Below the pieces are notes generated by a model. That model searched no databases. It worked only from the letters and a program-made list of their open reading frames with translations, and was not told where the DNA came from. 64,000 bases of DNA from Amphiscolops sp. MND2022 (taxonomy: Eukaryota), in NCBI GenBank assembly GCA_964187785.1, contig OZ076409.1, positions 47,804,001-47,868,000 of the forward strand, read 5' to 3'. Positions 5,631-34,825 of the stretch are shown here, one piece after another; the first letter of the stretch is position 1, and the number at the start of each line of letters is the position of its first letter. The position numbers were made by a program, and so were the translations under genes.

Positions 5631-5945
5631 TTATTGTTGTAGAATTGAATCAGATCTACTGAGTCGAGGCAGTTGCTGCAGCGAAGAAGTTTTTCTACTG
5701 GGTCGAGGACTTTGGATCTCTGACTCAGTTCCCCTTCTAAGCAGTTTCCGTTTCTCTCTCTCGGCCTGCTTGAATCTCATTTCAGTGACCAAGTAAGCAT
5801 CCATCTCCTCGTCCTGTACACTAATCTGTTGACCAGGTAAAGCAGGGGATGATCTTGTCAAGGGGGATCCCCTCTGTGGAGGCACACAATCACCTGCTGC
5901 CAACACTTTAGAGTCGGTTCTGAAGGTGGGCAAGTTGCGATGCGC
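5631..5945 (-). CDS. Probable terminal coding exon of the ankyrin-repeat host gene (AHRNLPT...SDSILQQ*)
   Basis: ttttcag acceptor at 5946-5947; phase 0 matches the donor at 28145; 105 codons to a stop; more GC-rich than its flanks. Confidence 0.6.
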   Translation of the reverse strand, partial: AHRNLPTFRTDSKVLAAGDCVPPQRGSPLTRSSPALPGQQISVQDEEMDAYLVTEMRFKQAEREKRKLLRRGTESEIQSPRPSRKTSSLQQLPRLSRSDSILQQ

Positions 5946-7861: not shown

Positions 7862-9448
7862 GAGTAATACCAATTTTTATAATCAGAGAAAAAAATTAGC
7901 TTCCAATTACAGGCCAATTTCTATTCTGGGTAACCTATCAAAGCTGTCTGAGAAAGTTATACATAAAAGATTGATGATTTTTTCTAGAAAAATTTGAAAT
8001 CCTTTCAGAAAATCAATACGGGTTTAGAAAAAAGAAAGATTCTGTCCGAGCCGCGACATCGCTTTTCAAACAAATAGAAGCAAACTGGAAGTCCTAAATT
8101 AAAACAAACTGTGTTTTCGCTGATTTCATGAAAGCATTTGATGCATTTGATCATGGCGTTTTATTGAAGAAACTGTATCATGTCGGTATCAGAGGTTTTT
8201 CCCAAAACTCTTGACGAGTTACTTAACAAATAGATTTCACTATGTAAAAATTGAAGGTAATTGCTCAACCATGAAATCAATAACACGTGAAGTCCCGCAG
8301 GGATCTATACTAGGCCCTCTTTTATTTCTTTTATATCAATGATCTGGGCGTCCATGAAGATTGGCAGAGTGAAATTATAAAGTATGCTGATGATACAGTT
8401 ATGATCGAGAAACAGAACACTCAGTCCGAGGATAAAACTTTGTTTCAAAGCTGGGAAAATAGGAATCACTTGGATTGTAATTACACTAAACCGAAGAAGT
8501 TCGCTGTTTTCGAGAAAAGATCAGTGAAACATCCGAACATAGTAATTGGGGACCATGAATTTTACTCTTGTGAGAGTTACAAAACATTTCGATAAAAATT
8601 GTACTTCGATAAACATAATAATCATGTTCCTGCCAAACTAGCGCAACATAGCGGAATTCTTTACAAATTAAGGGCAATGTTGAACGAAAAACAATGTATT
8701 CGATCATTTATATCACCTCTTGTTCAGTATGGCGTTCTTCTTTATGGACTGGGCCCAAAAATCAAATTGGACAAAATTTTCGTATTCCAGAAAAAGTTAA
8801 TAAGGATAGTCTTAAGGCTTCCCACCACGACCAGCGTTACAGAAAACTTCATAGATCGAAAAATCGGAACAGTATTTGAGTATCATGTCTACGAGATTCT
8901 GAAGTTTTCACTTAATCAGATACGAAATGGTTTTAAAACTCTTAGCATTGGAACTCAAAACAGACAAACAAGAAATAGAAGTCCAAACATTTGGAAACTC
9001 CCTACAAAAAATTATAGGCTGGATTGTCGTGCAATAATACTTATCAATGCCTTGCGCAAGTGGGGTGTTTTGCCTACTGACGAACTGATTTGTGAAATGG
9101 ACGAAAAATTTTTTCAAAATTTCAACCATCAAATTGCTGATCTTTACATTTTTGGTAATGGTGAATTAATTGATCTCGTTTACACTTAGAATTTTTTGGC
9201 TGGATAGATAGCAACGCTTGAATAAAAGTCAATGTCTACCACGCTTAAAAAATTAAAAAATAAAAAAAAAATTCTAAAGATTTCCCCTCGAAAAGCCTCA
9301 GTGCTTATGGGAAGCCTTTTCAGGGGCTATATTAAATTTTATTTGTACTCATATGTGATATTTTTCTACGATTATATATTCATATAATGTACGCAAAATA
9401 TGAATTATTATCTATAGTGCACCCTGATAAATTTAGTTATTATTATTA
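7862..9448 (+). mobile_element. 5'-truncated, decayed non-LTR retrotransposon (CR1/L2-group-like RT ORF2 remnant)
   Basis: Frameshifted RT motifs NYRPISILGNLSKLSEK, NQYGFRK, VFADFMKAFD, VPQGSILGPLLF, YADDT; C-terminal ORF 8599-9189; short (TTA)n tail near 9437-9448. Confidence 0.85.
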
Positions 9449-9486
9449 AGTTTCTCAACGAAAATGGTATATTCAAATATGAGAAT

Positions 9487-10972
9487 TGTGATAATCCTCT
9501 TGTGTACGATCCTCATTTATGACCACAGAGTCATTTAAATCGATGTTTTGTATGCTCAAAGGTTGCATCGGCGTTCTTAGTTCGTTTGAATTAGATGGCC
9601 TGAAAGGATTATCCTGTATCTCACATTCTTGATTTTCTGGTTCAGATGCGTTTTCTTCACCGTCTTCATTACTTATGTTTTTCGAGGTTCCTGCTTTGGG
9701 AGTGTTTTGTTCTTGATATCTTCTGTTTGGTACAGACTGTGTTCTTCTGTTATTTTTCATCTCTTTCAGTATTTTCTCCAGTTTTTCATCCATTTCTTTT
9801 CTTAAGTTTGTCACTTCTTTGTTCGTTTTATCTGTTATTCTTTGAGTCCAAATTTGCATTTCGTTTTCATTTTGTGTTCCGCTATCTAGAGTTATTTCTT
9901 CGTCCCTAACTGAACTAACATTTTCAAAGTTACTTAAAGTTTCAATAACAGTTTCATTACCTTGTGATGTCTCTATTTCTGATGCACTCAGTTCTCTCTC
10001 AAGCGAAGGTGATTGAATCCGTCTAGAGCTCCTATTCTTTCTGTTTCCCATCATAGTTAGGTGAAAACGATGTTTTGGAGAGAAGAATTTTAATTAGTTT
10101 GTTGGATTCAGTAAGACAAAGTGGAGTTGGTGAATTCGTGTACAGAAATAAATCATTGAAATTAGAATAGAAGTTGAAGGGTGAAAAAGGAGGTCTGATC
10201 AGTGTGAAGGTTTTTCCTTGACTGAGTTAATTTTATGAGTTCTTACTCTCCCTTTTTCAAACAATTTTTAGTAACATTACACCCCATTTTTTGAATGTCA
10301 CGCCGACATCATATTTACGCAATATCTAAAAATAGGGTTCAGTTCAATGTAAAAATAGGTTCTTGCATCATGGTTATAAATAGATTCTTACATGACGTAT
10401 GCTTTCTGCATTTTGATTGGTTAATATGTTAACTGCATTATTCCGTTCCATCGTTAATGGAAAGTCACGGCATCATGTAGTATGACTCATATTTAACGCT
10501 AATGTTAATCCCGACGTAGTACTGCACGTGTGATTAATTCAATGCAATGAGTAATACTCCAAAATGATGTAGTTAGCAAGTTGGAAAAGTGAAATTATGC
10601 TGCAGTATACTGCAAGCTTGGTGTGGTAGACTGGCTCAAACATTACTCTTTACATATCACTGCACTACGCAATTTGCGCATAATTTATGCATTTCATCAT
10701 AAATCACACTAGTCAATCACACACTTCATTTTTATTAACACCTTGCAATGTTTAGTAAGCCGATTGTTAAACAAATGTTATTCCACAGCTGCAATTGATT
10801 AAAATAATGAACAAATTTACACAAGGCTGTTAAGTAAAAGTTACATACAAATCCACGTAGTACAAGTTTAAAGAATGAAAGAGTTTCCTTTAATTTAAGA
10901 AGATGCTAGATGGTCGAGTCATTTGCCTCTATCGCTGCTCCGCGGGTCCAGCACAAGCTCTAGGCTGTGACA
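9487..10972 (-). repeat. Extra (duplicated) copy of the 3' LTR, 1486 bp
   Basis: Same TGT..ACA ends and same AGAAT flank as the LTR at 11609. Confidence 0.93.
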
Positions 10973-11608
10973 GGCCAGCATTTTTGAAGCAAAGGAGTGC
11001 AGCCTCGAACCCATCTAGATAGGCTCGTGACCTGATGTTCCGGTCTCGCACTGTTTCACCTGGGTATTCGGTGGCAATCGTGTAAGCTGCTAAGGCGTCA
11101 AGGGCTACTTCGTCATAGGTTTTTCCACACCAGTGACAGTTTCCCTGAACGTGAGGCATTACAGGCGGGTTAAGCTGCATCCTTCTGTGGACCGGCTGTT
11201 CCTGCGTACTGCTGTATGTTTGGGTAGGGTAAGTCTCGGCTACCCCGGGGTTGTTGTGTACACCTTGAGGGTCTAAATATAGTTGCCCGGCGGAGTTGTA
11301 ATAGTATCCAGAGTTATCTAGGTTACCAGGATGTTGTATGTTGGTTATTCCAGCATGTTGGAAAGGGATTGTTCCACGACCAACCAAAGCAGACATGCGC
11401 TGCTGAGTATTTGGGTTAAAGTTTTGGTCCCTTAGGGGCGTTTGCAGAATATATTAAATTTTATTTGTACTCATATGTGATATTTTTCTACGATTATATA
11501 TTCATATAATGTACGCAAAATATGAATTATTATCTATAGTGCACCCTGATAAATTTAGTTATTATTATTAAGTTTCTCAACGAAAATGATATATTCAAAT
11601 ATGAGAAT

Positions 11609-13094
11609 TGTGATAATCCTCTTGTGTACGATCCTCATTTATGACCACAGAGTCATTTAAATCGATGTTTTGTATGCTCAAAGGTTGCATCGGGGTTCTT
11701 AGTTCGTTTAAATTAGATGGCCTGAAAGGATTATCCTGTATCTCACATTCTTGATTTTCTGGTTCAGATGCGTTTTCTTCACCGTCTTCATTACTTATGT
11801 TTTTCGAGGTTCCTGCTTTGGGAGTGTTTTGTTCTTGATATCTTCTGTTTGGTACAGACTGTGTTCTTCTGTTATTTTTCATCTCTTTCTGTATTTTCTC
11901 CAGTTTTTCATCCATTTCTTTTCTTAAGTTTGTCACTTCTTTGTTCGTTTTATCTGTTATTCTTTGAGTCCAAATTTGCATTTCGTTTTCATTTTGTGTT
12001 CCGCTATCTAGAGTTATTTCTTCGTCCCTAACTGAACTAACATTTTCAAAGTTACTTAAAGTTTCAATAACAGTTTCATTACCTTGTGATGTCTCTATTT
12101 CTGATGCACTCAGTTCTCTCTCAAGCGAAGGTGATTGAATCCGTCTAGATCTCCTATTCTTTCTGTTTCCCATCATAGTTAGGTGAAAACGATGTTTTGG
12201 AGAGAAGAATTTTAATTAGTTTGTTGGATTCAGTAAGACAAAGTGGAGTTGGTAAATTCGTGTACAGAAATAAATCATTGAAATTAGAATAGAAGTTGAA
12301 GGGTGAAAAAGGAGGTCTGATCAGTATGAAGGTTTTTCCTTGACTGAGTTAATTTTATGAGTTCTTACTCTCCCTTTTTCAAACTATTTTTAGTAACATT
12401 ACACCCCATTTTTTGAATGTCACGCTGACATCATATTTACGCAATATCTAAAAATAGGGTTCAGTTCAATGTAAAAATAGGTTCTTGCATCATGGTTATA
12501 ATTAGATTCTTACATGACGTATGCTTTCTGCATTTTGATTGGTTAATATGTTAACTGCATTATTCCGTTCCATCGTTAATGGAAAGTCACGGCATCATGT
12601 AGTATGACTCATATTTAACGCTAATGTTAATCCCGACGTAGTACTGCACGTGTGATTAATTCAATGCAATGAGTCATACTCCAAAATGATGTAGTTAGCA
12701 AGTTGGAAAAGTGAAATTATGCTGCAGTATACTGCAAGCTTGGTGTGGTAGACTGGCTCAAACATTAGTCTTTACATATCACTGCACTACGAAATTTGCG
12801 CATAATTTATGCATTTCATCATAAATCACACTAGTCAATCACACACTTCAATTTTATTAACACCTTGCAATGTTTAGTAAGCCGATTGTTAAACAAATGT
12901 TATTCCACAGCTGCAATTGATTAAAATAATGAACAAATTTACACAAGGCTGTTAAGTAAAAGTTACATACAAATCCACGTAGTACAAGTTTAAAGAATGA
13001 AAGAGTTTCCTTTAATTTAAGAAGATGCTAGATGGTCGAATCATTTGCCTCTATCGCTGCTCCGCGGGTCCAGCACAAGCTCTAGGCTGTGACA
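11609..13094 (-). repeat. 3' LTR (1486 bp) containing an intact ~189-codon Gag N-terminal frame
   Basis: TGTCACAGCC...GATTATCACA on the minus strand; ORF 12176->11595. Confidence 0.95.
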
Positions 13095-14190
13095 GGCCAG
13101 CATTTTTGAAGCAAAGGAGTGCAGCCTCGAACCCATCTAGATAGGCTCGTGACCTGATGTTCCGGTCTCGCACTGTTTCACCTGGGTATTCGGTGGCAAT
13201 CGTGTAAGCTGCTAAGGCGTCAAGGGCTACTTCGTCATAGGTTTTCCCACACCAGTGACAGTTTCCCTGAACGTGAGGCATTACAGGCGGGTTAAGCTGC
13301 ATCCTTCTGTGGACCGGCTGTTCCTGCGTACTGCTGTATGTTTGGGTAGGGTAAGTCTCGGCTACCCCGGGGTTGTTGTGTACACCTTGAGGGTCTAAAT
13401 ATAGTTGCCCGGCGGAGTTGTAATAGTATCCAGAGTTATCTAGGTTACCAGGATGTTGTATGTTGGTTATTCCAGCATGTTGGAAAGGGATTGTTCCACG
13501 ACCAACCAAAGCAGACATGCGCTGCTGAGTATTTGGGTTAAAGTTTTGGTCCCTTAGGGGCGTTTGCAGAATCCTTCTAGTACGGTTATTTTGATGCGGT
13601 TGATTAGCAATTGGGATTTCTTGGGGTATCACAATTGGAGTTATTGGCACTGGTCTTATCGGACCTTTTCTACGGGGATCACTCAGGGAATTGTCAGCAT
13701 TATTTTGTGATAATGGAGGCATCTGTGTTATTACTTCTCCAGCGCGCATTGGGGGAACAGCGACTACTGGTCTACCATAACTGTTTCTTGGTGCGTTCGC
13801 GAAGTCCGCGTTTAACAGTAAATTATCCTCATTGCTCTCGTCTGACTCGACGAATGATGAAAGCGAAAAATCAGGTAGTTCAGTGTTTTCGGTTATTGTG
13901 CTCAATATTTCTCTTTCAATGTCAGTTCCGACAACGTCAATGAAAGAATCTTCTCTCGACACTGTCTCACTAACTGCGAACAGTCTAGACGCATCTTCGT
14001 TGACAAAAGCCAACATCGGATCTTGCAGCGGTCCCCCGGCTCTGAATCTCAAGTCAATTGGGTCAACGTAGGACTGCTCGGTTACAAATTCTTCCCCAGA
14101 GTCACTGGATATATTAATTAATCCAGGGGAATTTGTGGAGATGGATTGCATATCCTCATCGATGGTGAAGAGATTTGAGATTCTTGACAT
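13051..14190 (-). CDS. Accessory 379-aa sense ORF at the env position (acidic/Pro-Asn-Gln-rich, C-terminal CHWC motif), function unknown
   Basis: Intact ORF with aaaATG context; stop lies 44 nt inside the 3' LTR; no obvious signal peptide or transmembrane segment; 3' part duplicated at 10929-11450. Confidence 0.8.
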   Translation of the reverse strand: MSRISNLFTIDEDMQSISTNSPGLINISSDSGEEFVTEQSYVDPIDLRFRAGGPLQDPMLAFVNEDASRLFAVSETVSREDSFIDVVGTDIEREILSTITENTELPDFSLSSFVESDESNEDNLLLNADFANAPRNSYGRPVVAVPPMRAGEVITQMPPLSQNNADNSLSDPRRKGPIRPVPITPIVIPQEIPIANQPHQNNRTRRILQTPLRDQNFNPNTQQRMSALVGRGTIPFQHAGITNIQHPGNLDNSGYYYNSAGQLYLDPQGVHNNPGVAETYPTQTYSSTQEQPVHRRMQLNPPVMPHVQGNCHWCGKTYDEVALDALAAYTIATEYPGETVRDRNIRSRAYLDGFEAALLCFKNAGLSQPRACAGPAEQR

Positions 14191-14879
14191 TTTGCTTTCG
14201 TTTGGATTTTAAGGTTTCAACTGCTTTCCTCAGAAAGTTTTGAGTGAATGAATCCTTTTCGTTTTTCTTCACGCTTTGACTATTCTCCCGGGTTTTCCAA
14301 ATAAGGTATGTAGTTTGTAGAGTCATCTTCCTTTCTTGTTAACCCCTTTCCCGGCAATTTCAGGGTAAGCGTCAGATGATATCTCAATTTTATTTAAATA
14401 GCTTCACAACAAAATGAAGTTTTCTTTACAGCTTCCATACATGGCGGATAAGGGTGTTAATTTTCCATTCGAGCTGACAAAGACATATTAATTGACTGTA
14501 AACAAATATGAATGAGACTTTACATGATGAATTTTGAGAACTCGATTTTTATTTTCTGGAATTTACAAGATTTCCTTTTACGGAAATATAGTATGCGTTT
14601 TAAATCATATCACCAACAAAAGTAAAAATAAAACCGATTTACATGACTTTCAATCAAAACACATGTCAAGTTTCAGAGTTAAAATGATTTAATTCACTTC
14701 CTTAAATCATGTACACACTGCTTCATGATGTCTATTTCAGCATAAATATGTCAGATATTTGATGCATAATGGTCAGTTAGGTAAATGAGGAGAATGAAAC
14801 ATGATTGTATGGTTATTCTGTTTTAGGTCATTCAGTTGGTATTGTACTGCATTTTGCTGTCTGTTTCCACACATGACAC

Positions 14880-15060
14880 CAAACTGTCACTAGAGGGCGG
14901 AGCATCATGTATGCGTAATTTGTTTCAGCAATGCCGTTCAGGACGTCAATCTTTCTGGCAGATTTGATTGGTCCGTAATAAGCTCATCCAATCAGCGCAC
15001 AGTATTTGCGCAAATATGCTAATTTGTCATGCTTAGAATTTGTTCAGCCGGAAGCCACGC
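14880..15060. promoter_or_regulatory. Putative internal bidirectional promoter
   Basis: GC box GGGCGG 14895-14900, opposed CCAAT boxes (GATTGG 14966, CCAAT 14988), palindrome ATTTGCGCAAAT and ETS-like CCGGAAG 15048, lying between two divergent ORFs. Confidence 0.55.
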
Positions 15061-15266
15061 CACAGTTTTGTTTGTCAAATTTCTGTCTTTAAAGTCCGAA
15101 GTTTCCTTTTGCTTCCAACATTCATCTGTCCGTGTTCATTTTGCAATTTTTATAGATTAGTTTGTAATTTTCCATTTGGATTTCACTCGAATTCGTTGCA
15201 CCAACTTTAAAATTCACATCACAAATTCTTTGTACTGGATTATTGTTTCTCTTCTTTTACAAAACG

Positions 15267-18200
15267 ACGGTTTGCACTCGGCAATCATCAGCGAGTGAAA
15301 AGGATCAGGGAGCCAAATCGCCACTAGCAGGGACATCCAACAAACAGAAGAAGAAGAAATCTACATCAAAAAGTGGTAAGCTTGAATTTCAGTATTTTCC
15401 TGATCAGATCAGGCTAAGTGGTTGCTTTTTTGAGATATCTCGAATTTTAATATGAGCTGGCCAGGCTCATATCTTTGTCGACTATCTTCAGATTTGTCAA
15501 CTTTCGTTTTTCAAACTTCGTGCGAAAATATTTACTTCCGGTTGCAGAATGTAGCACCTTTTCAAGTTTTGTGCGGAAATACTGACTTCCGGTTGCAGAA
15601 TATAGCACAATATTTCAATTTTTGTTTCAGATTCTTCCCCAGCTCAATCACAAAGTAGGCTTCCCTTTACTTCTGTGAAATCAGGACGCTTAGCTGCAAA
15701 GCCCAGTGTTACCCTGAGTGTTAAAGCTAATCCAAGATTTTCGATTGATGAAGACGATATTCCTCCGGAGTTTTCTCCACAAATTTTATTGGACGGAGAT
15801 TTCAGTCAGTACGTTGAAACTACTAAGCCCGTTGAGAGTTTAGCAACAGCCGAAAATCCTTCAGACAATACTCCAAAACAGTGCGAATCAGCTTCAAATC
15901 CTTGTAATGCTCCAATTGACGACAAACGACCTTGTTCCTCATCATCTTTTGCGAATGACGGCAACCCTTCATTATTGATTCCAAGTACTTCTAAAGATTC
16001 TCCTTTTACGAGGTTTTTACTTAGCTCGACTCCCCCTAGTAAGAAACAGCAAAGTCCAAAAGCGGGGGCACAAGTGTCAGTCACTAATTCGTCTGTTGCA
16101 CTCCATTCTAGCCCCCAAGACACTGGAGACCAAAGATTAGAACGGCTACTCGCCGAGGCAGCTGAGGAAGCCAGAGATAAGATACTACAACAGTATCACG
16201 AGACAGTGAGAGACGACTCTCCACCAGCTATGGCCAGCCATCAAAGTGAACTGGAGACTAAAGAGGAGGTACCATCCCCCAAAAGGCCTCTAGTCCGGCA
16301 AATAGAAGAGAGTGACGACACTTCATCGGATTCATTAGGCAGCTCAGATCTTTCTTCTGCTGAAGAATTGGATGTGCCCAAGGAAAAGCCAATCAAGAAA
16401 CCAATACACACCCAACGAGAGGAGGGAGCACCGTCAGGGAAAAGAGCGAAGCCACGTCACACTTTAGCGGGGTGGATGTATCACAAGTACCCCATATTAA
16501 AGTATTTTGTAACTGCCCCCACTGACGCAGCACGATACCCTCACAAATATCGATGCCGGGTATGCTTGGTCGAACTCTCCTTGATGACAAAAGGACCTCT
16601 CGAAATTCTGGGGCATTATCGGACTGATGCCCATTTGGTGAAAGAGCACCGTATCAGGATGGAGACTCCTGGGCTCCCCTTGTATGATAAACATTGCAAC
16701 GAGCTCACTGGCGTGGCCCTCAAGTATGCTAAGGATCGGGCCAAAAGAGAATATCCTGTGGCTCCCAGACTTGGTGACTATTATTAACGGGTTGGCCAGT
16801 TAGAGCAACCGGAAGGAGCTTCAGCGAGCCCCCCGAGCAAGGAAGTCTTATCGCAACTCAATCTCCTCAAATTTGGCTTGGTTCATGGAGGACATTTGGA
16901 CACCGTGATAGCATTTTGGCATGATCTCGTTCGTGAAACCAAAACCATCGAGCCAATTTCACAGTACGATTGGAGACCACGTCGAGTATTGGTAAGTAAA
17001 TTTTCCATTGTATCTATGTTCCGAACTTTTCTTCAGTATTCAACTCTTTTCCTTTGTATTTAGGGATTGCTAACTCACATGTTTCGCGAATTGCTGTCAT
17101 ACTGTGTGACTTCAATAGAAGCTTCGGGCAGTTTCTCTCTTCGTCTTGCAGTTCTTTCCAACGAAACCAGACTTTTTATAAACTTTTGGGCTGGAAATTC
17201 TCTTCACAGTTTGTGTATTGCTGTGTTCCCTGGGCGAATGACAAATTCTACCGCACTCATCAATCCTGTGAGCAGTTTATTGGCACTGTTAGACAAAGAT
17301 GTGCAAATCCTGTTTATGTCTGGGTTCACTCGACGTTTCGTGTGGGCAATTTCTCGAGTCTTGCCGCAGCGGAGAAGAATTTGTGCAACTCCTAGATTCG
17401 ATGCCGATGATCTTGAGAGTGTTCTTCTAGTGCCATCGGTGCAACTCCTTGACCGGTTTGACTTCCGCAGCGTACTCGACTTCCTCCTAATGCGGCTTCG
17501 ATCAGCGTGTGGAAGTTCATGGTTGTCTGTTCTCCCAGATTTTCAAAGGGTAATGTTTTGTTTCCTTTCTTTATTTTTTGTCAGAATTAAGAGATGATAA
17601 ATCCATGCGATAAGTTACTCCCTTAATTAATTCGGCTTTAGCATTCGGCAAAATAGCCTGTTGGACTAATTTGTAAGTTCCAAACTTTATAAACAGCGTT
17701 GCGATTCTGTATCAAGTTTTTCGATGCTTTCCTCTTCGGTTCTTTGCTCCCAAGTCATTGTACTTCATTTCTTGCAGTAGACTGCCGCATAACTTGTTTC
17801 AACTTTTCATTCTTCATGCTCAAATTTTCAAAGATACCCATTATGCATCTCATAGTTTGCAGCATAGTACGGCATAATTGACTCTTTCAATTAGTTCTTT
17901 TCTTCACGATTATGCATGATTCATCATTTCGACTATGACCTGACACAAGCCGTTGAGATCTTGGATCAGTTGATCACAAATTGGGACAATGTGGTGGCAC
18001 ATCTCTATAACAGTAGACGTATTTCCACCTACCGCTTCCATATGCACGAGGTTTGTATACTTTAATTCCGTCTTCTTGAAACTCTACTTGCTTTGTTGGA
18101 TTGGGTTCTTCTTCTTCTTGTGTTCGATTTTAAGTATATAATCTCTTCCTTCTTCTTGTGTTCGAATTCAAGTATATAATCTCTTCCTTCTTCTTGTGTT

Positions 18201-19636
18201 CGATTTTAAGTATATAACCTCTTCCTTCTTCCTTTTAGCCCACTGGAATAGATGATCTCATTGTCAAGGACCGGGTCTTCGTCGCGCGGTTATTCATCAC
18301 CCGCAACATACTTAGCCAATGTTAGTATTTGATTTCGGTTTCATGCTTTTGAGTTGTCCCCCTTGTTTTATCACGAGTAACTGTAAATTTTCAAACTTTA
18401 AGATCGCTCACTAAGAGAACCCTTTTGTAAGGAACGACCAGGAAAATCTTGGTAACCTCAATTTGAAATCACAAAGTTTATCATTGTTCCAGACAATTCA
18501 ATCTTCAAGGAAGTTCACACCACTGTTGCTGGGGGTTTCCGTTTATTCAACCAATTCTGTGTCTTTATTTACTCTCAACTTCAAGTTATCCTTCCTGCTA
18601 CTCAACTTGGTGATGTCGCTGATTGGACAGTTACCTCAGTTTGGACATGGATGATGAAAAGCTAGTGTTCAAGACAGTTGATGAATTCTTGCAGGACAAG
18701 GATTTTTCTGATCTAATGCAGAAGAGTAAGATCCCTACCTCAAGACGGTTTGTCAGCCAAGTTGTTTCCTTTTACAAGTGTTTTTTAAAGAAACTTCTTA
18801 CCAGCGAATTAGCAACCTCTTCATTCGCCAGGGGGTTGTCTTCATTTGACGAAGTCGTGGTTAAAGTTGGCAATTCAGCTCACTACACCGATTCCATACA
18901 ATTGCCATGTGGTTACTTCGTCCAACAAAAATGGATCGCACCAAGCGTTAAGCCCGTCATCGTGAGCGAGTACTGTTCTCTGGTGACGAAATTTCGACTG
19001 GACAAAGTCGACAATGGCAGTGAAGAATGGGTGAGCTTCTTCTCTCGGTACTACGAGTTACAAAGTCGGGCTGAGTTATTTCGGCTTTTCCGGATTTGCT
19101 GCGAGACTTTGAGAAGTCCTTGTCAGGCACCCCCTTTATTCACTGTTTCTTTGGTCGGACTCAAGTCAGACGTTTCAGAATTTAATTCTGCAGCGAGAAG
19201 TCTCCAGTGTTCGATTGCATCAATTCAGAAGATTGAAAGCTTATTTTTGGCCTCTGCTTCCTTACCCCGAGCCTTCGCTCTTCTTGACCAAGGGCCTGGG
19301 TTGATGCACAAACGCAAGTTCTCCATGTGGAATTTATTGTCATCAAGCTATTTCCACAAGATTGGGATTCGGGCTTCATTGGAAGCCTGTTATAAGAAGA
19401 GTAGCGTAGATGATGAGACTATTTGGTTGTCAATTGGAGATTCAGTTCCCAGCAGAAGTTCTAGTGCCACTAGTACCCCCAGTAAGACTTCTCCGGAGAA
19501 ACCCTCAACTAGCAAAGCTAGTCCAGTGGTACGACGCTTGTTTGAGGTGCCCGTGTTTCCCGATGTAGATCCACCCAAATCCGGAGAGAAGAAGGAGAAG
19601 AAGAAAGGGGTTTTTACTCCAAACAAGCACAATTAG
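15267..19636 (+). pseudogene. Six-exon antisense cargo gene (~1,110 aa) with a C-x2-C-x16-H-x5-H zinc finger and hAT-transposase-like body; this copy is mutated
   Basis: Exons ~15267-15375, 15631-16991, 17064-17549, 17895-18050, 18239-18320, 18493-19636 joined by GT..AG introns with matching phases (1,0,0,0,1); lesions are ACG at the likely start codon, in-frame TAA at 16785-16787 and a 1-nt frameshift near 18623. Confidence 0.8.
18111..18224. repeat. 3 x 38-bp tandem repeat in intron 4 of the antisense gene
   Basis: Unit cttcttcttgtgttcgattttaagtatataatctcttc at 18111, 18149 and 18187. Confidence 0.9.
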
Positions 19637-19766
19637 TTTGCTGTGCTTTAGACTGTTCTTTATTTTGGAACAAAATACTCTTTCGTTTGTATTACGTTCT
19701 ATTTACATGTTACGGTAGTGATTCAAGTTAAGAAGCAGTGAGTTCAGTCTTGATAGTCTCTTGTTT

Positions 19767-22700
19767 TTAATATCTATATGAATCTGAAAAATTAGGGTTT
19801 GGGTTGGGTCGTAAATTGTATTTTTGTCCACGTGTATTGGTAGGGGTTTTTTCTTTTTGAACCTCATCATTTTCTTGATTTTCATCTGTATTTCCTGGGG
19901 ACTTTTCTGCATCAATAGTAGGGTTAGGTTGTATGTTATGCTGATAATCATTTGTATCAGTTTCGTTTTCTGCATTTTCGATTGGGGTTTCTATATTAGG
20001 AACGGTAGTTTGTTCTGCCGGGGCTCCCCCACTGTTTTTTGAAATTTCGAGGGAGGGTGGGTGGTTTATCGGTACATATTCTTGTACGTCCTCTTGTTCG
20101 TTATCTGGGAGTTCTGTGTCAAATGGATCTGTACCAAAGTTTGTGTCCCATGTATGGGCATACAGATCATCGTGTGTTACTATCATGTTGTCGTCTTTTT
20201 GCCAATCAGTTTCTCTGACAAAATTATCGGCTAGTGGTGCACTAGGTGTAAATTTTCTCAAACGTAGTCGGTGTAGTAATTGTGTTTTGTTTGTCCCAAG
20301 CCTACGTACAATGTAGTTATTGTTAGGTAGGACTTTTTCGACTTTGTAGTGACCGATCCAACGGAATTCCCTGAATGGGATTTTCGTTGCTTGCGTGTCT
20401 GCTTTTGGGTTCAGTATGTAGCAATAGTCTGTTGTTGTAAGCGGTGCCGCTTTTGCCTTGCGGTCATAGTATGCTTTATACTTCAAGTATGACTGCATGA
20501 TGTTCTTTTTGGTTTGGTCATTGAGTATCTCCATTCGTCGTTGTATTTCTTCTGCAATGTCAGTTTGTGGAGTATACCGCGGATTAGGATTGTAGCCTAG
20601 CTTGTAGTCTAGTATGTTATGTGGTATTCTGCCGTGAAACACACGGGTGGGTTCGCATCCTAAGCTGGCATGATACGTTGTGTTGTGGTTTAGGACAGCA
20701 AGTGGTAGAAATTTGTGCCAATTATTACGGAATTCACCAGTTGCTGCTTTCAAATGTGCTTTTACTGTAGCATGAGTGCGTTCTAGCATGCCGATTGTTT
20801 GTGCATGTTTTGTCGAAGCATGTTTTAGCTCAACACCAAGCACTGCTGCTACCTCTCGAGTAATTTGTGAGTTGAATTGAGTGCCCATATCAGTTATTAT
20901 GGTTGTTGGTAAGTATGTGTGTTTGCACAAAATGTCCATAATGACTCTTGCGACTGTAGGGGCTGTGATCCGAGTTGTTGGATAAGCAAATAAGTATCTT
21001 GAAAAGACATCAATTGCTGTTATGATGTTATCAAAACCTCCACTAGGCGGAAGATTTGGTAATATGTCCATTTGAAGTATGTCTTCTGGACCAAGGTCCC
21101 ATTCTGGGCAATTAAGAAGTTCTAATTTTAGTAAATCGTTGTTAATTCTTTTGTTCTGAATGCACATTTGGCAGTTTTGTACCCAATTCTTGATGTGTTT
21201 TGCTAAGCATGGGTAATAGTATTTCTGGCGTGCTTCTTGAATCATTTTTGTTATTCCTGGGTGGTTTGCGTTGTGTCCATGCAACGCCTGTAGGAATTCT
21301 TCGAGAAGCTGTTTTGGTAGAAGTATTTGGTAGTGTGAGATTTGTCCGATATCATTGTAGTACTTTCGGACAAGAATGTCTTGACGTATTTCTATGCGGG
21401 GTATATTTTGTAGATAATGTTGATAACGATTATCTTGTGTGAACGCTGATTCGTCAAAGGGTTCACCTTCTATTTTTGCTCTGAGATTGCGAAGGACAGG
21501 ATCATTGTTTTGTTCGAGTCGAATTTTTGCATTATCTCGAAAATGTCCTTCGCGGTAGTTTGTTGTACCAGCTGTTGGTTTGTGAAAGTTTTGTAATTCG
21601 GTTCTTTCATTTTCTGGTTCATTGTGAGTTTCGGTCTGTGCTTGATTTCTAATATTATTTTTTTGTTCCTAATGTGTTTTTTCATCAATTTCATCCTCGG
21701 GGAGGAGGTAGATGTGTTCTTCTTCTGTTATGCCAGAGGATTGAATATTAACTTCAATGGCTTTTGTTTGTATGTCGTTGCGTATGTTCATCTCGAGTTT
21801 CTCTGTCGGGTTGATTTCTGTTCGCGACAGAAAATCTGCGGCTGTGTTCATCGCTCCTGCAACATGTGCTATAACGAAATTGTACTGTAGGACGTAGTCG
21901 CATGCATTCCATAGTGCAGGAGGAATGAGTTTTGTTTGGAAGAACCTCGTAACTGCACGGTTGTCGGTAAAGACAATTACAGGAAAGGTACTTCCCCACA
22001 TTAGATGCCCAAATTCTGAGAAGGCAAAAAAGATTGCTAAAAACTCTTTTGCATATATTGACATTTTCAATTGCGTGGGGTTGAAAGATTTGGAGCCAAA
22101 AGCTATTGGGGCATATGTTTTGCGTTTTGATTGTAGTTTTTGTTGAGGGTCGTCTTCAATCATAATCGCATATCCTGCAGCTGTGAAGCTTGCGTCGGAC
22201 ATGAGGATTAGCTGTTTGTCTTTGAGTGGTTGTTTGAGTGCCATCTGGCAAGATTGGAGGAGTAGGTTGTTTAACTGTTCAAAATTACTTGTAGGTTCGG
22301 TAGAAATGTAGAATTTGTTGGTTTCTTTCAATAGTTTGAAGAAAGGGGTGAGTCGTTCCGAAAGGCGTGGTATATAATTTCTGTAATAATTCAGAAAACC
22401 AATATACCTTTGAAGGCCTTTTTTGGATTTGGGGAATTTGAGTTTTGCTAAGAAATCTTTGACTTTGTCTACTTGGGGAGAAACTCCTTCAGGTGTGATC
22501 GTTCTTCCCAGGAAATCGACCTGTTTGACTCCAAAGTGGCATTTTGACATTGATAATTTCAGACCTGCGTTCCGTATACATTCGAAGACTGCTCGGATGT
22601 TTATACACAGTTGTAACACCGTGTTTGCTGCAATTCCGATGTCGTCGACGTATTGGGCGCATTGGTCTGCTTTGATGAGGGTGTCTAAGTATTCCCGTAT

Positions 22701-24694
22701 GAAACTGGAGAATGCTGAAAGTGATCGGCTAAGGCCTTGTGCTAAACGCCGATATGCAAAGGTTCGGCTAGCAAAGTTAAACGCCAACATTTGAATAGAT
22801 TGGTAATCTGCCATCTGAAGGCAGTGGTACGCTTGTGAACAGTCAAGTTTACAGAATAATTTCTTTCCTGCCATATGTTGGGCTGCATCGGAAAGTGTAC
22901 TGACTGGGTGATTGTTATTTACGTAGTCTTCAGAGATGAGATTATTTATCTTGCGCAAGTCGACTAAGAGTCGCAAACGACCATTAGTTTTCCGTTGCGC
23001 AAAAATGGGACTTGCGTATTTAGAGAAAGGCAGAGTTGTTATTATACCATACTTATGGAGTAGGGCAAGTTCTACCGTGATGTCGTCTTTTAGGTTGATC
23101 GGAGTTGGAAGACTTTGACTATATGCTGGTCGATCATCATTTGGTGTGAATTTGATCTTGAATTCTCTATTTGTCCCGATGTCAAACCGGTGTCTGGCAA
23201 AAATATCATGAAATTCAACCAGCAGTTCTTCCACCTTTTGTCGTTCAAACAGAGTGAGTGTTGTGTCACTCCAGTCGAAATTGTCAAGAAAAGTTTTGCG
23301 TGATTTTTCGTTGTCTTGTGGGTTAAGTTTTTCTAGTGTTTGAAGTTCCACTAGTTCGTCAAATATTCGTTTCTGAATAGGTGTGTATGTTGTGGGGTCT
23401 CCTGGTTGTTCCGGTGTTGGAAACCAGTATTGTTCCATTTTGTCTTCTTTGTCGTTTACTTTTAAAAGTTCGTTGAGGTATACGTCCGTAACTTCAGTAT
23501 GTTGGTGCATGATAAATGTTAGCAATGAAGGGTTGATTGGTTTGATGTGTTTCAACTGTTCTGGGGTTAAGGATCGAAAGTCGGCTAGATGTGTGTCTGT
23601 TGTGATTGTATATGGTAGTTCTGAAAAATTACAGATCTGGTATCCGACTGCGTTATTGTTGACTGTGCAGAGGGAAGAAACAAGGAAAAGTGTGTCATGA
23701 TCCTCAAGGTGCGTAGATGGCGTTACTATGCCTGTTGCATCGTGATCAATTAAATGCGGCATTCTGCTTGCAATGAGCATCGTTTCACCCGGTTGCAGTG
23801 TGTATGTTGCTTCTGCAAGTAGTGGTGTTGATTGTCGTGTTGGGAGATTGTGTTCTGGTTTCAATTGCATTGATAAATGTGGGAAAGTCAATATCCCTTG
23901 TCGGATGTCGAAAATGGCATTGTTCCTTTTTAGGAAACAAAGTCCAATTAGGGGATTCGGTAAGACTTTCATGACGATGAAATTTTCTTTGAACATAAAA
24001 TCTGCCACTTCGAATGTTAGGCAGACTGGCAGACTGTTCCGATTGGTGTTTCCAATTGTCCGTTTGCTACCATTATTTGAAAATTGGGTGCAGGACCTGT
24101 GTCTGTTATTGCTTCTGGTGCAAGAAGTTTGATTTTATTTAGGTCTTGTTCCGATATTGCGCTCGTGAGAGCTCCGGTATCAATTAGAGCGTCGAGTGTA
24201 AGCTTTTCGATATCCATCGGAACATAATACATATGTCGTTTGCTTTTTAGTGTCAGGTTGGTTGATAGAAGAAGCATTGGTATATCTGTGTCTTTATTAA
24301 TCGTAAGATGATTTTGAATTTCATCATCTATGAGTGGTAGTTTTTGTATTGATGCAGGTTCGGTTGGTACTACAGGTGAGTCTTGTGTTTGGAGAGGTTC
24401 GAAATTGTTTTTCGGAAGAGGTTCTGGTAAATTTTGTGGTGAGGTTTCGGGTTCAGAATCAAACAGATTTTCTGGTGTTTTTTCGTTACTTATGTCAAGA
24501 TTTGTGGTTATGTATCTGTCAGGGGCGTCTCTGTATATTTCGTACAAGTCGTCCTCTGATTCGTTTTGTTGAGTTCCTTGAGTCTGAGAGTCAGTGTGTT
24601 GTGTGAAAGTGTTTGTTTTTATTGAGTGAGGAGTTGGATGCTGCCAGTCATCTTTCTCCTCTGGTTTTGTAGGGCGTGGCTTTATTAGTTTAAA
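19767..24694 (-). pseudogene. pol: Gypsy pol polyprotein (PR-RT-RNaseH-IN, ~1640 codons) with two lesions
   Basis: PR ALIDTGA; RT KLDCSQAY/LAQGL/YVDD; RH MSDAS..KEFLAI..FTDN; IN H-H/CQMC, QMDIL, ITDMGTQF, GMLERTH and GPY/F-like WIGHYKV; an 8-bp duplication (ggcagact x2, 24020-24035) shifts the frame; in-frame TAG at 21669-21671. Confidence 0.95.
24688..24694 (-). promoter_or_regulatory. -1 programmed ribosomal frameshift slippery site U UUA AAC
   Basis: GAT TTA AAC TAA ends gag; the -1 frame is open for 47 codons directly into the protease ORF starting at 24547. Confidence 0.8.
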
Positions 24695-25778
24695 TCCTTC
24701 GATGATGAGGGTTGTTGTCGGGGTGCTTTTGGGTTAATATGTTTGTTGGAGTTTTTGTAATTTTCAATGAGTTTTTTCTGTGCTTCGGTTAGTGTCCACT
24801 TCGGGGGGCGATTTTCCATATTTGCTCCGAAGTAGCATGTTGGTTCCTCATGTCCTGGTGCGTTACAATGCGCACAGCGTATGGCATCAGGGTCTTCTTC
24901 CAACTTACGACGTTTTGCTAATTTAGCACAGTCTGCTGCCTTGTGCCCCGTGTTTTTACAATAACGACATTGATCATCCTGTAATGTATTGTTGGGCACA
25001 GTTTTTGGTGTTTGTTGCTTCTTTTTTGTTGTTGCAGTTTTCTGCTGCGCCGATTTGTCTTCTGCTGTTTTGTTTATCACTGCCATTTGCGTTTTAATGC
25101 CAGTGTCTTCTGATTCAAGTCCATTTAATTCCATCTCTCGTTCGAGATGTCGGACTATTTGCTCATATGTTCCATTCTCAAGATAGGGTTGATTAATAGA
25201 GCGTTTCAAGTGTGGTGGCATTTTTGCATATAATAGACTTTCTATCATTTGTGATGCAATGTCACCGAAAGCTTTTTCGGCGCTTTCTTGTAATTCTTCT
25301 AAGAAATCTGGTAGTTTCTGGCGTTCCGGGTCAAAAACCAAGCGATGAAATCTATGTTTTGCTGACGCACTAGATTCGGGCTTGACATATTTTCTCCTGA
25401 ACACTACCAGTATGTCTTCTAGCGTAGTTGTTGGTGTTCGTTGGATATTTTTGAATGTTTTCAATGCTAGTCCACGCAAATGTGCGTGAAAATGGTTTAT
25501 TTTCATTTCTTCGGTTAATGCGGGTTGCATTCTGAGTGTTGTGTGGAAAAGATCATCGAAGTATTCGAATTTTTCATTCTTTTCCAATTTCCCATTGAAA
25601 GTAAGTGTATTTTTTGGATGAAAGAGTGATGGTTGTGAATTACGACTTGCCAATTTTTCAATAGCCAATGCTATTTGATTAACGGAGTCTTGCTGATTGT
25701 TGAGTGGTTCAGCAATCAGATGTTCATTGTTTGTTGTTTTTGTATTGTTTGAGCTTTGACGATGAAGTGGTTTGGTAG

Positions 25779-25790
25779 CTCCTGTCACCA
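25779..25790 (-). promoter_or_regulatory. Primer binding site (probably tRNA-Leu-like)
   Basis: TGGTGACAGGAG directly follows the LTR end CA; one mismatch to the typical tRNA-Leu(CAG) PBS TGGTGTCAGGAG. Confidence 0.7.
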
Positions 25791-27273
25791 TGTGATAATC
25801 CTCTTGTGTGCGATCCACATTTATGACCACAGAGTCTTTAATCGATGTTTTGTATGCTCAAAGGTTGCATCGGCGTTCTTAGTTTGTTTAAATTAGATGG
25901 CCTGAAAGGATTATCCTGTATCTCACATTCTTGATTTTCTGGTTCAGATGCGTTTTCTTCACCGTCTTCATTACTTATGTATTTCGAGGTTCCTGCTTTG
26001 GGAGTGTTTTGTTCTTGATATCTTCTGTTTGGTACAGACTGTGTTCTTCTGTTATTTTTCATCTCTTTCAGTATTTTCTCCAGTTTTTCATCCATTTCTT
26101 TCTTAAGTTTGTCACTTCTTTGTTCGTTTTATCTGTTATTCTTTGAGTCCAAATTTGCATTTCGTTTTCATTTTGTGTTCCGCTATCTAGAGTTATTTCT
26201 TCGTCCCTAACTGAACTAACATTTTCAAAGTTACTTAAAGTTTCAATAACAGTTTCATTACCTTGTGATGTCTCTATTTCTGATGCACTCAGTTCTCTCT
26301 CAAGCGAAGGTGATTGAATCCGTCTAGAGCTCCTATTCTTTCTGTTTCCCATCATAGTTAGGTGAAAACGATGTTTTGGAGAGAAGAATTTTAATTAGTT
26401 TGTTGGATTCAGTAAGACAAAGTGGAGTTGGTGAATTCGTGTACAGAAATAAATCATTGAAATTAGAATAGAAGTTGAAGGGTGAAAAAGGAGGTCTGAT
26501 CAGTGTGAAGGTTTTTCCTTGACTGAGTTAATTTTATGAGTTCTTACTCTCCCTTTTTCAAACAATTTTTAGTAACATTACACCCCATTTTTTGAATGTC
26601 ACGCCGACATCATATTTACGCAATATCTAAAAATAGGGTTCAGTTCAATGTAAAAATAGGTTCTTGCATCATGGTTATATATAAATTCTTACATGACGAA
26701 TGCTTTCTGCATTTTGATTGGTTAATATGTTAACTGCATTATTCCGTTCCATCGTTAATGGAAAGTCACGGCATCATGTAGTATGACTCATATTTAACGC
26801 TAATGTTAATCCCGACGTAGTACTGCACGTGTGATTAATTCAATGCAATGAGTCATACTCCAAAATGATGTAGTTAGCAAGTTGGAAAAGTGAAATTATG
26901 CTGCAGTATACTGCAAGCTTGGTGTGGTAGACTGGCTCAAACATTAGTCTTTACATATCACTGCACTACGCAATTTGCGCATAATTTATGCATTTCATCA
27001 TAAATCACACTAGTCAATCACACACTTCAATTTTATTAACACCTTGCAATGTTTAGTAAGCCGATTGTTAAACAAATGTTATTCCACAGCTGCAATTGAT
27101 TAAAATAATGAACAAATTTACACAAGGCTGTTAAGTAAAAGTTACATACAAATCCACGTAGTACAAGTTTAAAGAATGAAAGAGTTTCCTTTAATTTAAG
27201 AAGATGCTAGATGGTCGAGTCATTTGCCTCTATCGCTGCTCCGCGGGTCCAGCACAAGCTCTAGGCTGTGACA
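25791..27273 (-). repeat. 5' LTR (1483 bp)
   Basis: Direct repeat of 11609-13094; AGAAT TSD on its outer side. Confidence 0.95.
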
Positions 27274-28145
27274 AGAATGTATTTCACCAACAAACACTTC
27301 AGAGCTCAAAGTTTTCCCCTCTAACGATGAGACACTTTTAGTTCCATGAATATCTATGACAGTCTAATAAAGTCCCACTTGGATAGCATAACATGAAAGT
27401 ATGTGGTTTATCCAACGGAACTGGAAAAAGGAAAAAGTAAAACAATATATATGTCTGTTACAGGAAATCATTGCGACAAAAAAGCCTAACAACACTTTGT
27501 ACGGCTCCTATCAAAAGATCCCCTAGCCCATTGGGGTGTGCCGAGGAATAAGAATTTCCTTGGTTCATTCTTTCGAAATATATTCAACACTTTTGATGTT
27601 TTCTTTTGCTTTTGTTATTGGAACTCGATAATTTTTTAAATGCCTACCAAAATTTGAATTTCTCCTATATAGTTGATTTTCTGGTTATTTCGACGAGTTT
27701 TGACCTGTTATATCTTTCAGGAAAAATAATTACGTTGATCAATGACCATCTAGTATGTGACTTGATTTATTCTTTCACCCGGTTTTCCGTTTTTTTGAAA
27801 GATTTTTTAGACGGATGCTTTAAGCAATAATGCTTTCCTTCCATATGGATATCGATACGGGTTTTCCGATTTTATTAACTCATCTTGCTTCATCTTTTTC
27901 TTCATCATTCTCATCAGTTTTGTACCTTTTACGGTCCTGCGTTTTCTTGCGATCAAGCGTTTGTTTGCATTTTTTACCATCATAGCCCTGCTTTCAAAAT
28001 CTTGGAACCATGGCTGTCTTGACAAGATCTCACAATAGCAATATGCTATATGACTTACCCTAGTATTTTCAACAAAGCACAATTTTCGGAACAAAAATAC
28101 AAATACATTTGAAAAGTGTATGACCATGTCATTATGAAAGCATAC

Positions 28146-34755: not shown

Positions 34756-34825
34756 CACCACTCATATAAATTTTTACAGTTGTTCCAAATCACTACTTTG
34801 AATACTAATAATAATCTGACGTGAC

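Follow-up and report, generated by a model that had tools for sequence, protein, structure and literature searches.

In errantiviruses, env is carried as a sense ORF3. More generally, extra open reading frames (ORFs) are often found between pol and the 3' LTR, and their origin and job are described as an open question (PMC7264820). Antisense additional ORFs, termed aORF-3R, are described from plant Tat/Retand, maize Grande (gene23) and rice RIRE2 (PMC7264820, PMC11963269), and gene23 of Grande has its own promoter (PMC7264820). The antisense gene that we describe here differs from aORF-3R in that its host is an animal and its coding region is divided into six exons, whereas the word 'intron' does not occur in the available text of PMC11963269. 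It also differs in its product, which combines a BED-like finger with an RNase-H-like fold and has no match to Pfam Transposase_28 (PF04195), and in having a conserved sense-ORF partner that overlaps the LTR and alleles that were swapped between backbones. This sense ORF occupies the env position just before the 3' LTR, as do the env-like ORF3 of Athila and Bagy2 (PMC7264820) and errantivirus env, but in contrast to env-like ORF3 it has no signal peptide, transmembrane (TM) stretch or conserved splice acceptor, and its product is acidic, partly of low complexity and equipped with a motif resembling a SUMO-interaction motif (SIM).

Three described proteins are comparable in terms of role. CERV of the C. 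elegans element Cer1 (PMC10309623) is, as predicted for the proteins described here, an accessory protein that a Ty3/Gypsy element of an animal directs to the nucleus; it differs in being translated from spliced sense mRNA and in exporting genomic RNA. TnpA of Spm is a transposase-derived regulator (10.64898/2026.08.24.746577), and TnpA and VANC of VANDAL (PMC5735166) resemble the present case in that a mobile element keeps a catalytically dead transposase-type protein or an accessory protein, whose proposed role is to activate the element's own copies or to lift their silencing. The targets of VANC contain tandem repeats (PMC5735166), and such repeats are also found in one of the spacers described below. 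However, TnpA and VANC belong to plant DNA transposons rather than to a retrotransposon, the activity is a predicted one here, and no sequence relationship was positive; moreover, the specificity of VANC proteins diverges (PMC5735166), whereas the finger described here is conserved across alleles. The openly accessible literature outside Repbase, covered mostly at the level of search entries, held no report of this element, of an LTR element with a spliced antisense gene derived from a hAT transposase, or of a SIM-bearing accessory protein of a retrotransposon. Our overall reading, which we put forward tentatively, is that a superclade stably carries two accessory genes, probably with promoters of their own, whose products would be nuclear regulators that keep the element expressed.

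The element and its two accessory genes

The window, i.e. the whole stretch of 64,000 nucleotides that was analysed, contains a Ty3/Gypsy LTR retrotransposon on the minus strand (27274-11612), with TG...CA LTRs, a target-site duplication, a PBS, gag and domains in the order PR-RT-RH-IN. The 3' LTR (11612..13094, minus strand; 1483 bp, TG...CA) was delimited by self-BLAST and sequence. By self-BLAST it is 98.6% identical to the 5' LTR (25792..27274, minus strand), which is followed by the PBS TGGTGACAGG, and a target-site duplication of 5 bp lies on both sides of the element. The gag-pol region (19767..26352, minus strand; protease, RT, RNase H and integrase) is broken at several points in this copy; gag starts inside the 5' LTR and its reading continues across the PBS. 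The expected polypurine-tract site (13095..13113, minus strand) consists of sense-ORF coding sequence with no purine run, and its junction with the LTR is the same in 19/20 elements. No polypurine tract was found directly 5' of the 3' LTR in clades 1-3, where the sequence is mixed, and in clade 4 nothing longer than a short stretch of purines was present, a few bases away from that site. LTR pairs are 99.8-100% identical in several elements of the four-clade set.

As the original prediction had stated, a sense ORF and a spliced antisense gene lie between pol and the 3' LTR, and the stops of pol (19767) and of the antisense gene (19636) are separated by 130 bp. The sense ORF (14190-13051, minus strand; ORF scan) encodes 379 aa with an acidic N-terminus, a low-complexity middle and a conserved C-terminal domain that contains Cys and begins at aa 297 (nt 13302). 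Since the 3' LTR begins at 13094, the ORF overlaps it by 44 bp, with its last 14 codons inside the LTR, which corrects the original placement of the cassette before the LTR. The cassette had also been said to replace env, which holds for its position only, as no env-bearing ancestor came to light. A hydropathy scan gave no signal peptide or transmembrane segment in 10/10 ORFs (maxima 0.36-1.14). The dN/dS values of 0.21 and 0.19 indicate that the sense ORF is under purifying selection. The predicted SUMO-interaction-like motif (aa 24-34; 14089..14121, minus strand), a hydrophobic core followed by a Ser/acidic run, was present in 83/101 loci with a single match per locus, and it is the only clear element common to the sense ORFs of all four clades. 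It fits the definition of SIMs in PMC12751080, by which a four-residue V/I/L core in disordered sequence is flanked by residues that are acidic or can be phosphorylated. SIMs in general are loose motifs. The core contains an Asn in clades 1-2, and we give binding of SUMO by this motif an even chance. Neither accessory protein matched Pfam above cut-off, the ESM Atlas yielded nothing for the sense-ORF C-terminus, and the Baculo_F env family gave one weak match. New here is a sense ORF that lacks a membrane segment, shows the substitution pattern of purifying selection, carries a SIM-like motif and ends inside the LTR.

The antisense gene encodes a protein of ~1,100 aa with two basic ends, and its exon structure had to be corrected to six coding exons. 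On the plus strand these are exon 1 (15267..15375), exon 2 (15631..16991; a disordered region, a C2H2/BED-like finger with its first Cys at 16554 and a helical region), exon 3 (17064..17549; a predicted RNase-H-like fold), a remnant of exon 4 (17918..18050), exon 5 (18239..18320) and exon 6 (18493..19636; a helical domain and a Ser/Lys-rich tail). The window copy is broken at four places: the start codon is missing at 15267, a premature stop lies at 16785, the exon-4 acceptor region is lost near 17916 and the frame shifts near 18626. Among homologous junctions, GT/AG was found at 428/440, leaving out seven sister loci from which intron 5 is precisely absent; intron 3 is absent from 6/7 clade-4 loci examined, with the flanking exons in frame. 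Between clade-1 alleles the exons have dN values of 0.11-0.39 and saturated dS, indicative of purifying selection.

Both genes recur together, as had been expected for related families. Sense ORF, antisense exons and integrase were in the same order in 58/60 and 18/20 loci, and both accessory genes were present in 17/20 loci chosen by integrase alone. The pair spans four clades down to an integrase identity of 44-48%, which is that of clade 4, where the antisense gene was found in 20/20 and a motif-bearing sense ORF in 18/20. The two-gene layout is real and ancient.

Fold and origin of the antisense protein

The model of exon 3 has a mean pLDDT of 60, with a core of 70-85. Four Hermes chains were the top Foldseek rows among 350,542 (E 1.6e-3 to 7.3e-3), and no match of this model reached E 0.001. 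In VIA-align, Hermes scored Z 6.1 (rmsd 3.5, 103 aligned), tied by integrases, Argonaute and actin-like chains. The model places exon 3 in the RNase-H-like fold class, whereas its assignment to hAT in particular is weak. The order of finger, helical part, RNase-H-like core and long helical region is that of hAT transposases (Hermes; PDB 4d1q, 2bw3, 8sjd). The finger, C-x2-C...H-x5-H, is conserved and nearly invariant across antisense alleles, with a weak zf-BED match in one of three members (E 0.78). Unlike in Hermes, the position of the first catalytic Asp is not acidic. With positions placed by topology rather than by a residue-level structural alignment, no Asp ended strand 1 in any of 53 copies, an Asp followed strand 4 in 22/53, and no DDE triad was found; exon 6 has no invariant Glu.

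With regard to the C-terminus, a hAT dimerization-like pattern is visible by eye only, without a Pfam or profile match, and a profile comparison with host hAT C-termini, which used a shallow template, gave nothing. The exon-6 model (mean pLDDT 50) had no Foldseek match at E 0.001, and in VIA-align it matched only generic helical bundles, with no hAT chain among the matches listed. For exons 5-6 the ESM Atlas returned helical matches to tethering complexes (0.87-0.91), which we take as generic helical similarity. Sequence searches against the PDB and a DUF4371 search gave no match, homologue searches gave only unnamed ENA proteins or none, and a metagenome scan yielded 42 pattern matches, none of which was confirmed. 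Some relatives on short contigs are without a close match in this genome. In contrast to hAT transposons, the gene is not surrounded by TIRs (the best inverted match is 9 bp) and has no Pfam hAT match, and all scores are weak. Judging from the models, the antisense protein is probably a dead hAT-like transposase retained for DNA binding.

Intron-1 hairpins and antisense alleles

Intron 1 (15376..15630; minus strand as the better-pairing one) contains an array of five predicted hairpins. The 51-bp duplicated unit with two copies of ACTTCCGG (15534 and 15585) is present as described earlier, but these copies, which had been taken for ETS sites, are hairpin arms, and only one allele group has the duplication. 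The hairpins pair better on the sense (genomic RNA) strand (26 G-U versus 5 A-C cells), on which the folding z was also lower in 7/9; the z-scores themselves are modest (+1.2 to -3.5). Both sides changed in 10/33 pairs, as against 0/500 shuffles, in a structure drawn from the same alignment. A 9-bp stem with a palindromic loop lies at 15450-15472. This stem with its self-complementary loop is conserved on the genomic-RNA strand in clades 1-3, and from clade to clade the palindrome of the loop is exchanged in its entirety (TGGCCA, TGATCA), so that RNA-RNA pairing fits better than a protein site. Clade 4 had this hairpin in 0/18 copies by a strict pattern and, inconsistently, in 6/20 by a relaxed one; an Rfam search gave no match.

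Retroviruses (HIV-1 DIS) and Ty1 have kissing-loop dimerization signals. The likeness consists in a stem-loop of the genomic RNA whose 6-nt loop is self-complementary and differs between clades as one unit, but the known signals lie in the 5' leader, whereas the predicted one lies near the 3' end in an antisense intron. It is conceivable, at somewhat less than even probability, that the palindromic-loop hairpin is a genomic-RNA dimerization signal, which would lead to co-packaging within a clade and to exchange of antisense alleles by template switching.

The antisense alleles themselves have been swapped between backbones independently. Antisense and integrase distances were uncorrelated (rho 0.03), 20 elements carried seven antisense allele groups, antisense third positions were saturated in 11/24 pairs with near-identical integrases, and 4/10 supported integrase splits conflicted with the antisense tree. 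The two genes had originally been seen as one module; as a single moving unit, this view was not borne out. The persistence of old alleles because antisense transcripts silence copies of the same allele best is a doubtful idea.

Transcription and purpose of the two genes

The spacer of the window copy contains a GC box (14895), GATTGG (14966), CCAATC (14988), CCGGAAG (15048) and TATTTAAATA (14391), all within the spacer in which the original prediction had placed them. When the spacer was mononucleotide-shuffled 5000 times, the motifs taken singly turned up 170-252 times and TATTTAAATA 53 times, and the GC box, opposed CCAAT boxes and ETS site never occurred jointly (0/5000). A candidate promoter for the antisense gene is the block at 14895..15061 (plus strand). 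Its members are CTGGCAG (14955), the CCAATC and GCCACGCC (15054), joined in clade 1 only by the GC box, the reverse CCAAT (14966) and the CCGGAAG. Close to the sense ORF, a T-run/CCCGGG/T-run with TTTCCCGG (14283..14354, no strand assigned) forms a second candidate promoter element, found in 32/33, 15/17, 14/14 and 3/18 copies of clades 1, 2, 3 and 4. Between them, in an otherwise diverged spacer, TTTTAGGTCA (14821..14830, plus strand) is invariant in 12/12 aligned copies. The clade 3 spacer contains tandem repeats, and that of clade 4 (~400-650 bp) has CCAAT boxes directed toward the sense ORF in 17/18 and TGACG repeats in 18/18 copies. With regard to splicing, no acceptor passed in the 1 kb upstream of the sense ORF in 19/19 clade-1/2 copies, which favours the LTR-independent expression that had been proposed, whereas 5/7 clade-3 and 4/9 clade-4 copies have passing sense-strand acceptors at unrelated distances.

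These observations bear on whether one promoter serves both genes. A shared bidirectional core of GC box, opposed CCAAT and ETS site, co-expressing the genes as a unit, would account for the joint non-randomness of the motifs and for their retention in 23-30/33 clade-1 copies, and the short clade-4 spacer could be one compact divergent promoter. However, GC box and ETS site are absent from all 17 clade-2 and 14 clade-3 copies. The reverse CCAAT is missing from every clade-2 copy and, in clade 3, from the homologous place, as is TATTTAAATA from the homologous place in clades 2-3. The proposed Sp1/NF-Y/ETS core, i.e. GC box, reverse CCAAT, ETS and TATA-like motif, therefore failed the conservation check, being confined to one clade. 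Moreover, a distance of 700-870 bp separates the block from the sense ATG, and many upstream ATGs lie in this interval (seven within 450 nt of the sense ORF in the window copy), and the two genes reassort independently. We consider the shared promoter improbable, and transcription of the sense ORF from one shared core unlikely. Since conserved blocks lie beside each gene and the 'bidirectional' motifs are limited to one clade, two back-to-back promoters fit better. On sequence evidence, the antisense gene very probably needs a promoter of its own, for which the CTGGCAG-CCAAT-GCCACGCC block is the likeliest candidate, and the sense-ORF transcript probably begins 100-250 nt upstream of its ATG and not via LTR splicing.

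Each accessory gene would thus be transcribed from its own internal promoter, back to back; the antisense gene would be an intron-containing descendant of a hAT-like transposase that has lost its cutting site, and its product and the SUMO-binding sense-ORF protein would act as nuclear regulators that maintain element expression, not infectivity. That their purpose is transactivation or counter-silencing of the element is plausible, though we hold it with some reserve. BED-type fingers and SIMs point to chromatin. This stands against a role in particle or RNA traffic, in which the antisense protein would help the integration complex to enter the nucleus or to choose its target, or one protein would export unspliced genomic RNA via the intron-1 hairpins in the manner of Rev or CERV; so does the wholesale change of the loop palindrome between clades. 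The better pairing of the hairpins on the genomic-RNA strand, the basic termini of the antisense protein and the precedent of Cer1 CERV as an export protein in an animal LTR element (PMC10309623) speak for such a role, which we regard as not very probable. In most copies the antisense gene converges on pol at a distance of 115-292 bp and its strand has no conserved AATAAA, which makes read-through into pol plausible; downstream of pol, a poly(A) signal conserved on the sense strand was also considered and dropped, its occurrences being scattered. Such read-through would suit a self-limiting device, in which gag-pol and copy number would be kept low by the antisense RNA or by the dead, transposase-like protein. 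A SIM together with DNA binding could recruit repressors, and alleles that diverge in nucleotides while the protein is conserved are what RNA-level self-silencing would favour. Yet a protein of ~1,100 aa under strong purifying selection in all four clades exceeds what antisense RNA needs, and a pure repressor is hard to retain in an expanding lineage, which leaves this explanation very unlikely. The transposase-like fold and spliceosomal introns could suggest that the antisense gene is a DNA transposon nested there recently, or a piece of a host gene, and the sense ORF an env remnant; this was rejected as scarcely credible on the conserved position in four clades, the purifying selection, the missing TIRs and the missing env features. 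Returning to the regulatory reading, its most elaborate form is speculative and rather improbable: a kit in which the disarmed DNA transposase would find its own DNA, the disordered SUMO-binding protein would intercept SUMO-dependent silencing, and the kissing loop would allow dimerization and the trading of ancient antisense alleles kept by rare-allele advantage.

The element family is very large: a single genome holds candidate copies in the thousands, and young families among them. In this lineage the likely origin of one extra ORF can be traced to a DNA transposase that a retrotransposon has retained together with its introns, and the partner protein has a testable SUMO-binding motif. The allele swapping provides a natural test of the ways in which RNA dimerization and antisense transcription may shape retroelement recombination. 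If the regulatory reading is true, the pair would give animals one of their rare examples of counter-silencing encoded by an element itself.

Anatomy of the element and its sense ORF

The Ty3/Gypsy retrotransposon (27274-11612, minus strand) resides in an animal genome of 1.07 Gb, is flanked by a 5-bp target-site duplication and, as judged by Pfam, carries the zinc knuckle, protease, RT, RNase H and integrase in Ty3/Gypsy order. Self-comparison placed the 5' LTR at 27274-25792 and the 3' LTR at 13094-11612, both on the minus strand, 1483 bp long and 98.6% identical. Gag starts ~560 bp within the 5' LTR and its frame is open across the primer binding site, PBS (26352-25790), so that each LTR, solo or 3', bears a gag head of ~200 aa. 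Most of 20 elements, drawn from the four clades of related elements in this genome, likewise have long gag frames that begin ahead of the PBS; the window copy belongs to clade 1. No polypurine tract was found ahead of the 3' LTR (13095-13113), and this junction sequence is conserved at synonymous sites in clades 1-3; a plus-strand primer of an unusual kind, within coding sequence, is suggested. A tandem duplication of 2122 bp (99.2%; 9328-13572), either genuine or an assembly artefact, spans the end of the sense ORF, the 3' LTR and 160 bp of flank, and internal tandem duplications also occur in several sister loci (L060, L079 and L140). Elsewhere in the window, terminal inverted repeats of ~900 bp bound an element at 33538-39546, probably a DNA transposon; GGGGGACCCTTT repeats are dispersed at 29.8-31.9, 48, 55 and 60 kb; and a decayed fragment, non-LTR RT-like by sequence appearance, adjoins an assembly gap at 7900-9190.

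The 379-aa sense ORF (14190-13051, minus strand) extends 44 bp into the 3' LTR. The first TG of the LTR falls within one and the same Leu codon of the ORF in 19 of 20 elements, which ties the ORF to the LTR. Its dN/dS was 0.21 in clade 1, with the minimum at the termini, and 0.19 in clade 2. Ten sense ORFs sampled from all clades shared an acidic first third, and none of them had a hydrophobic segment. The predicted protein is not an env: the original prediction of an env replacement holds for the position only, and this ORF is without env features. Close to the N-terminus, 83 of 101 loci each have a single V/L/I-V/I-D/N-I-S-S-acidic motif (34/41, 17/20, 14/20 and 18/20 in clades 1-4; the misses were not inspected individually). 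This putative SUMO-interacting motif (SIM) fits the published definition (PMC12751080).

A spliced antisense gene

The antisense gene (15267-19636, plus strand) comprises six coding exons, amounting to ~1,105 codons in an intact sister copy; the window copy is disrupted at four places. GT or AG was present at 428 of 440 homologous junctions, a count that omits seven loci in which exon 5 runs straight into exon 6 at precisely the predicted junction. Exons 3 and 4 of clade 4 share one frame in 6 of the 7 loci printed. Synonymous sites are saturated among clade-1 alleles, with dN of 0.11-0.39. These signals indicate that the gene is truly spliced and under selection. The seven sister loci that precisely lack intron 5 (L016-L022) belong to one allele group, and clade 4 is without intron 3; both are exact losses or gains of an intron in a gene that runs opposite to the copied RNA. 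Intron 4 holds four copies of a 38-bp tandem repeat (18073-18259). The unnamed database protein P0034, which joins the LTR-borne gag head and the antisense finger region in a single frame, is probably a rearranged copy.

A C2H2 finger with a weak zf-BED match closes exon 2. The exon-3 model has the topology helix-three strands-helix-strand-helix; the top four Foldseek ranks went to Hermes chains, although none of them reached E 0.001, and VIA-align gave Hermes a Z of 6.1, level with integrases and actin-like folds. Exon 6 is helical with a hAT-like C-terminal pattern by eye, and its profile comparison against host hAT pieces was negative. An Asp at the end of strand 1 was absent in 53 copies, an Asp after strand 4 was present in 22 of the 53, and no Glu is invariant in exon 6. 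We read the modelled protein as a non-cutting one of RNase-H fold, probably hAT-derived.

The gene pair across the lineage

Among 60 clade-1 and clade-2 loci, chosen by the last antisense exon, 58 share the order of sense ORF, antisense exons and integrase, at an integrase identity of 76-78% between the two clades. Clade 3 (integrase 74-76%) keeps this order in 18 of 20 loci chosen likewise. In clade 4 (integrase 44-48%) the antisense gene was present in 20/20 loci; the sense-ORF profile matched 0/20, and a sense ORF has the position and direction seen in the other clades, with the common motif in 18/20. First-look candidate counts of up to 5,000-7,000 are not copy numbers. As a control for bias, 20 loci were chosen solely by integrase rank: 17 contained both genes, one the antisense gene alone within the stretch, one sense-ORF pieces alone, and one neither. 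Sequence comparison thus identifies both accessory genes as fixed components of a large lineage. The predicted gene pair is real and co-occurs in related families across four clades, and every motif and distance originally named was found in the window.

The two genes, proposed to be one module, do not travel as a unit. In the 20 clade-1 elements (of 41) with all parts readable, the sense ORF had a mean nucleotide distance of 0.067 and integrase one of 0.078, against 0.311 for the antisense gene, which falls into seven allele groups; antisense and integrase distances were uncorrelated (rho 0.03, p 0.33), and the trees of the three genes disagree at supported splits. Of 24 pairs whose integrases are nearly identical, 11 had saturated antisense third positions. 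Clade 2 has a like excess, with dS of 0.35, 0.13 and 3.5-3.9 in one pair. Similarity falls sharply at ~15075, immediately past the motif block, so that the promoter block is common to different antisense alleles.

Candidate promoters, hairpins and a proposed mechanism

Beside the antisense gene, CTGGCAG, CCAATC and GCCACGCC keep a constant order in clades 1-3 (32, 32 and 31 of 33 copies; 17, 17 and 16 of 17; 14, 14 and 9 of 14). A distinct CCCGGG-type motif is placed near the sense ORF, at 50-250 bp from its ATG, in 32, 15 and 14 copies of clades 1-3. The GC box, ETS motif and TATTTAAATA (30, 23 and 23 of 33) are confined to clade 1, with 0 in clades 2-3, as is the reverse CCAAT at this place (25/33), which speaks against the single bidirectional core first envisaged; the factor names Sp/KLF, NF-Y and ETS serve here as labels for the spacer motifs. 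The motif arrangement fits best with two back-to-back promoters ~700 bp apart. One shared promoter could serve clade 4, where the spacer is short. Independence from the LTR is probably right: a matrix built on 97 antisense-gene acceptors found no passing acceptor in the 1 kb ahead of the sense ATG in any of 12 clade-1 and 7 clade-2 copies; 5/7 clade-3 and 4/9 clade-4 copies had one, at unrelated distances. A candidate below threshold lies near 14496, and upstream ATGs are dense past ~85-200 nt from the sense ATG. Within the diverged spacer TTTTAGGTCA is invariant (14821-14830), resembling a plus-strand splice acceptor or a nuclear-receptor half-site. Tandem 18-30-bp repeats immediately upstream of the CCAAT block (L062, about 2270-2400 as oriented, and other clade-3 loci) are candidate binding sites for the finger.

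Intron 1 is more conserved than its flanking exons and forms five sense-strand hairpins with 92.9% of cells paired. Both sides changed in 10 of 33 pairs, matched by 0/500 shuffles, the structure being derived from the same nine sequences used in this test; G-U cells numbered 26 versus 5 A-C. The supposed ETS sites, ACTTCCGG, are hairpin arms, and the intron-1 duplication is confined to the window's allele group. One stem carries the self-complementary loop TGGCCA in 29/34 clade-1 loci, 28 of which have it at the homologous position, and TGATCA in 12/17 clade-2 loci; 4 of 1,200 shuffles had such a stem. The strict test gave 0/14 in clade 3 and 0/18 in clade 4. A bulged TGGCCA hairpin occupies one site in 16/20 clade-3 loci, and no consistent palindromic-loop hairpin was found in clade 4. 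Our best guess is a kissing-loop dimerization signal, the rival being an export element or protein site.

Beyond the anatomy, conservation, splicing signals, selection and swapping established here, we propose that each accessory gene would be transcribed from its own internal promoter. The putative dead transposase, presumably nuclear and DNA-binding, would sustain element transcription with its predicted SUMO-binding partner, and RNA dimerization may aid the exchange of antisense alleles. The stretch between the antisense and pol stops lacks a conserved poly(A) signal, so antisense read-through into pol would be possible. The nearest precedents for this proposed job are TnpA (10.64898/2026.08.24.746577) and VANC (PMC5735166), and for the position the plant aORF-3R genes, antisense additional ORFs of plant retrotransposons (PMC7264820, PMC11963269). 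The gene pair is a real, old and unusual variation on the accessory-ORF theme.
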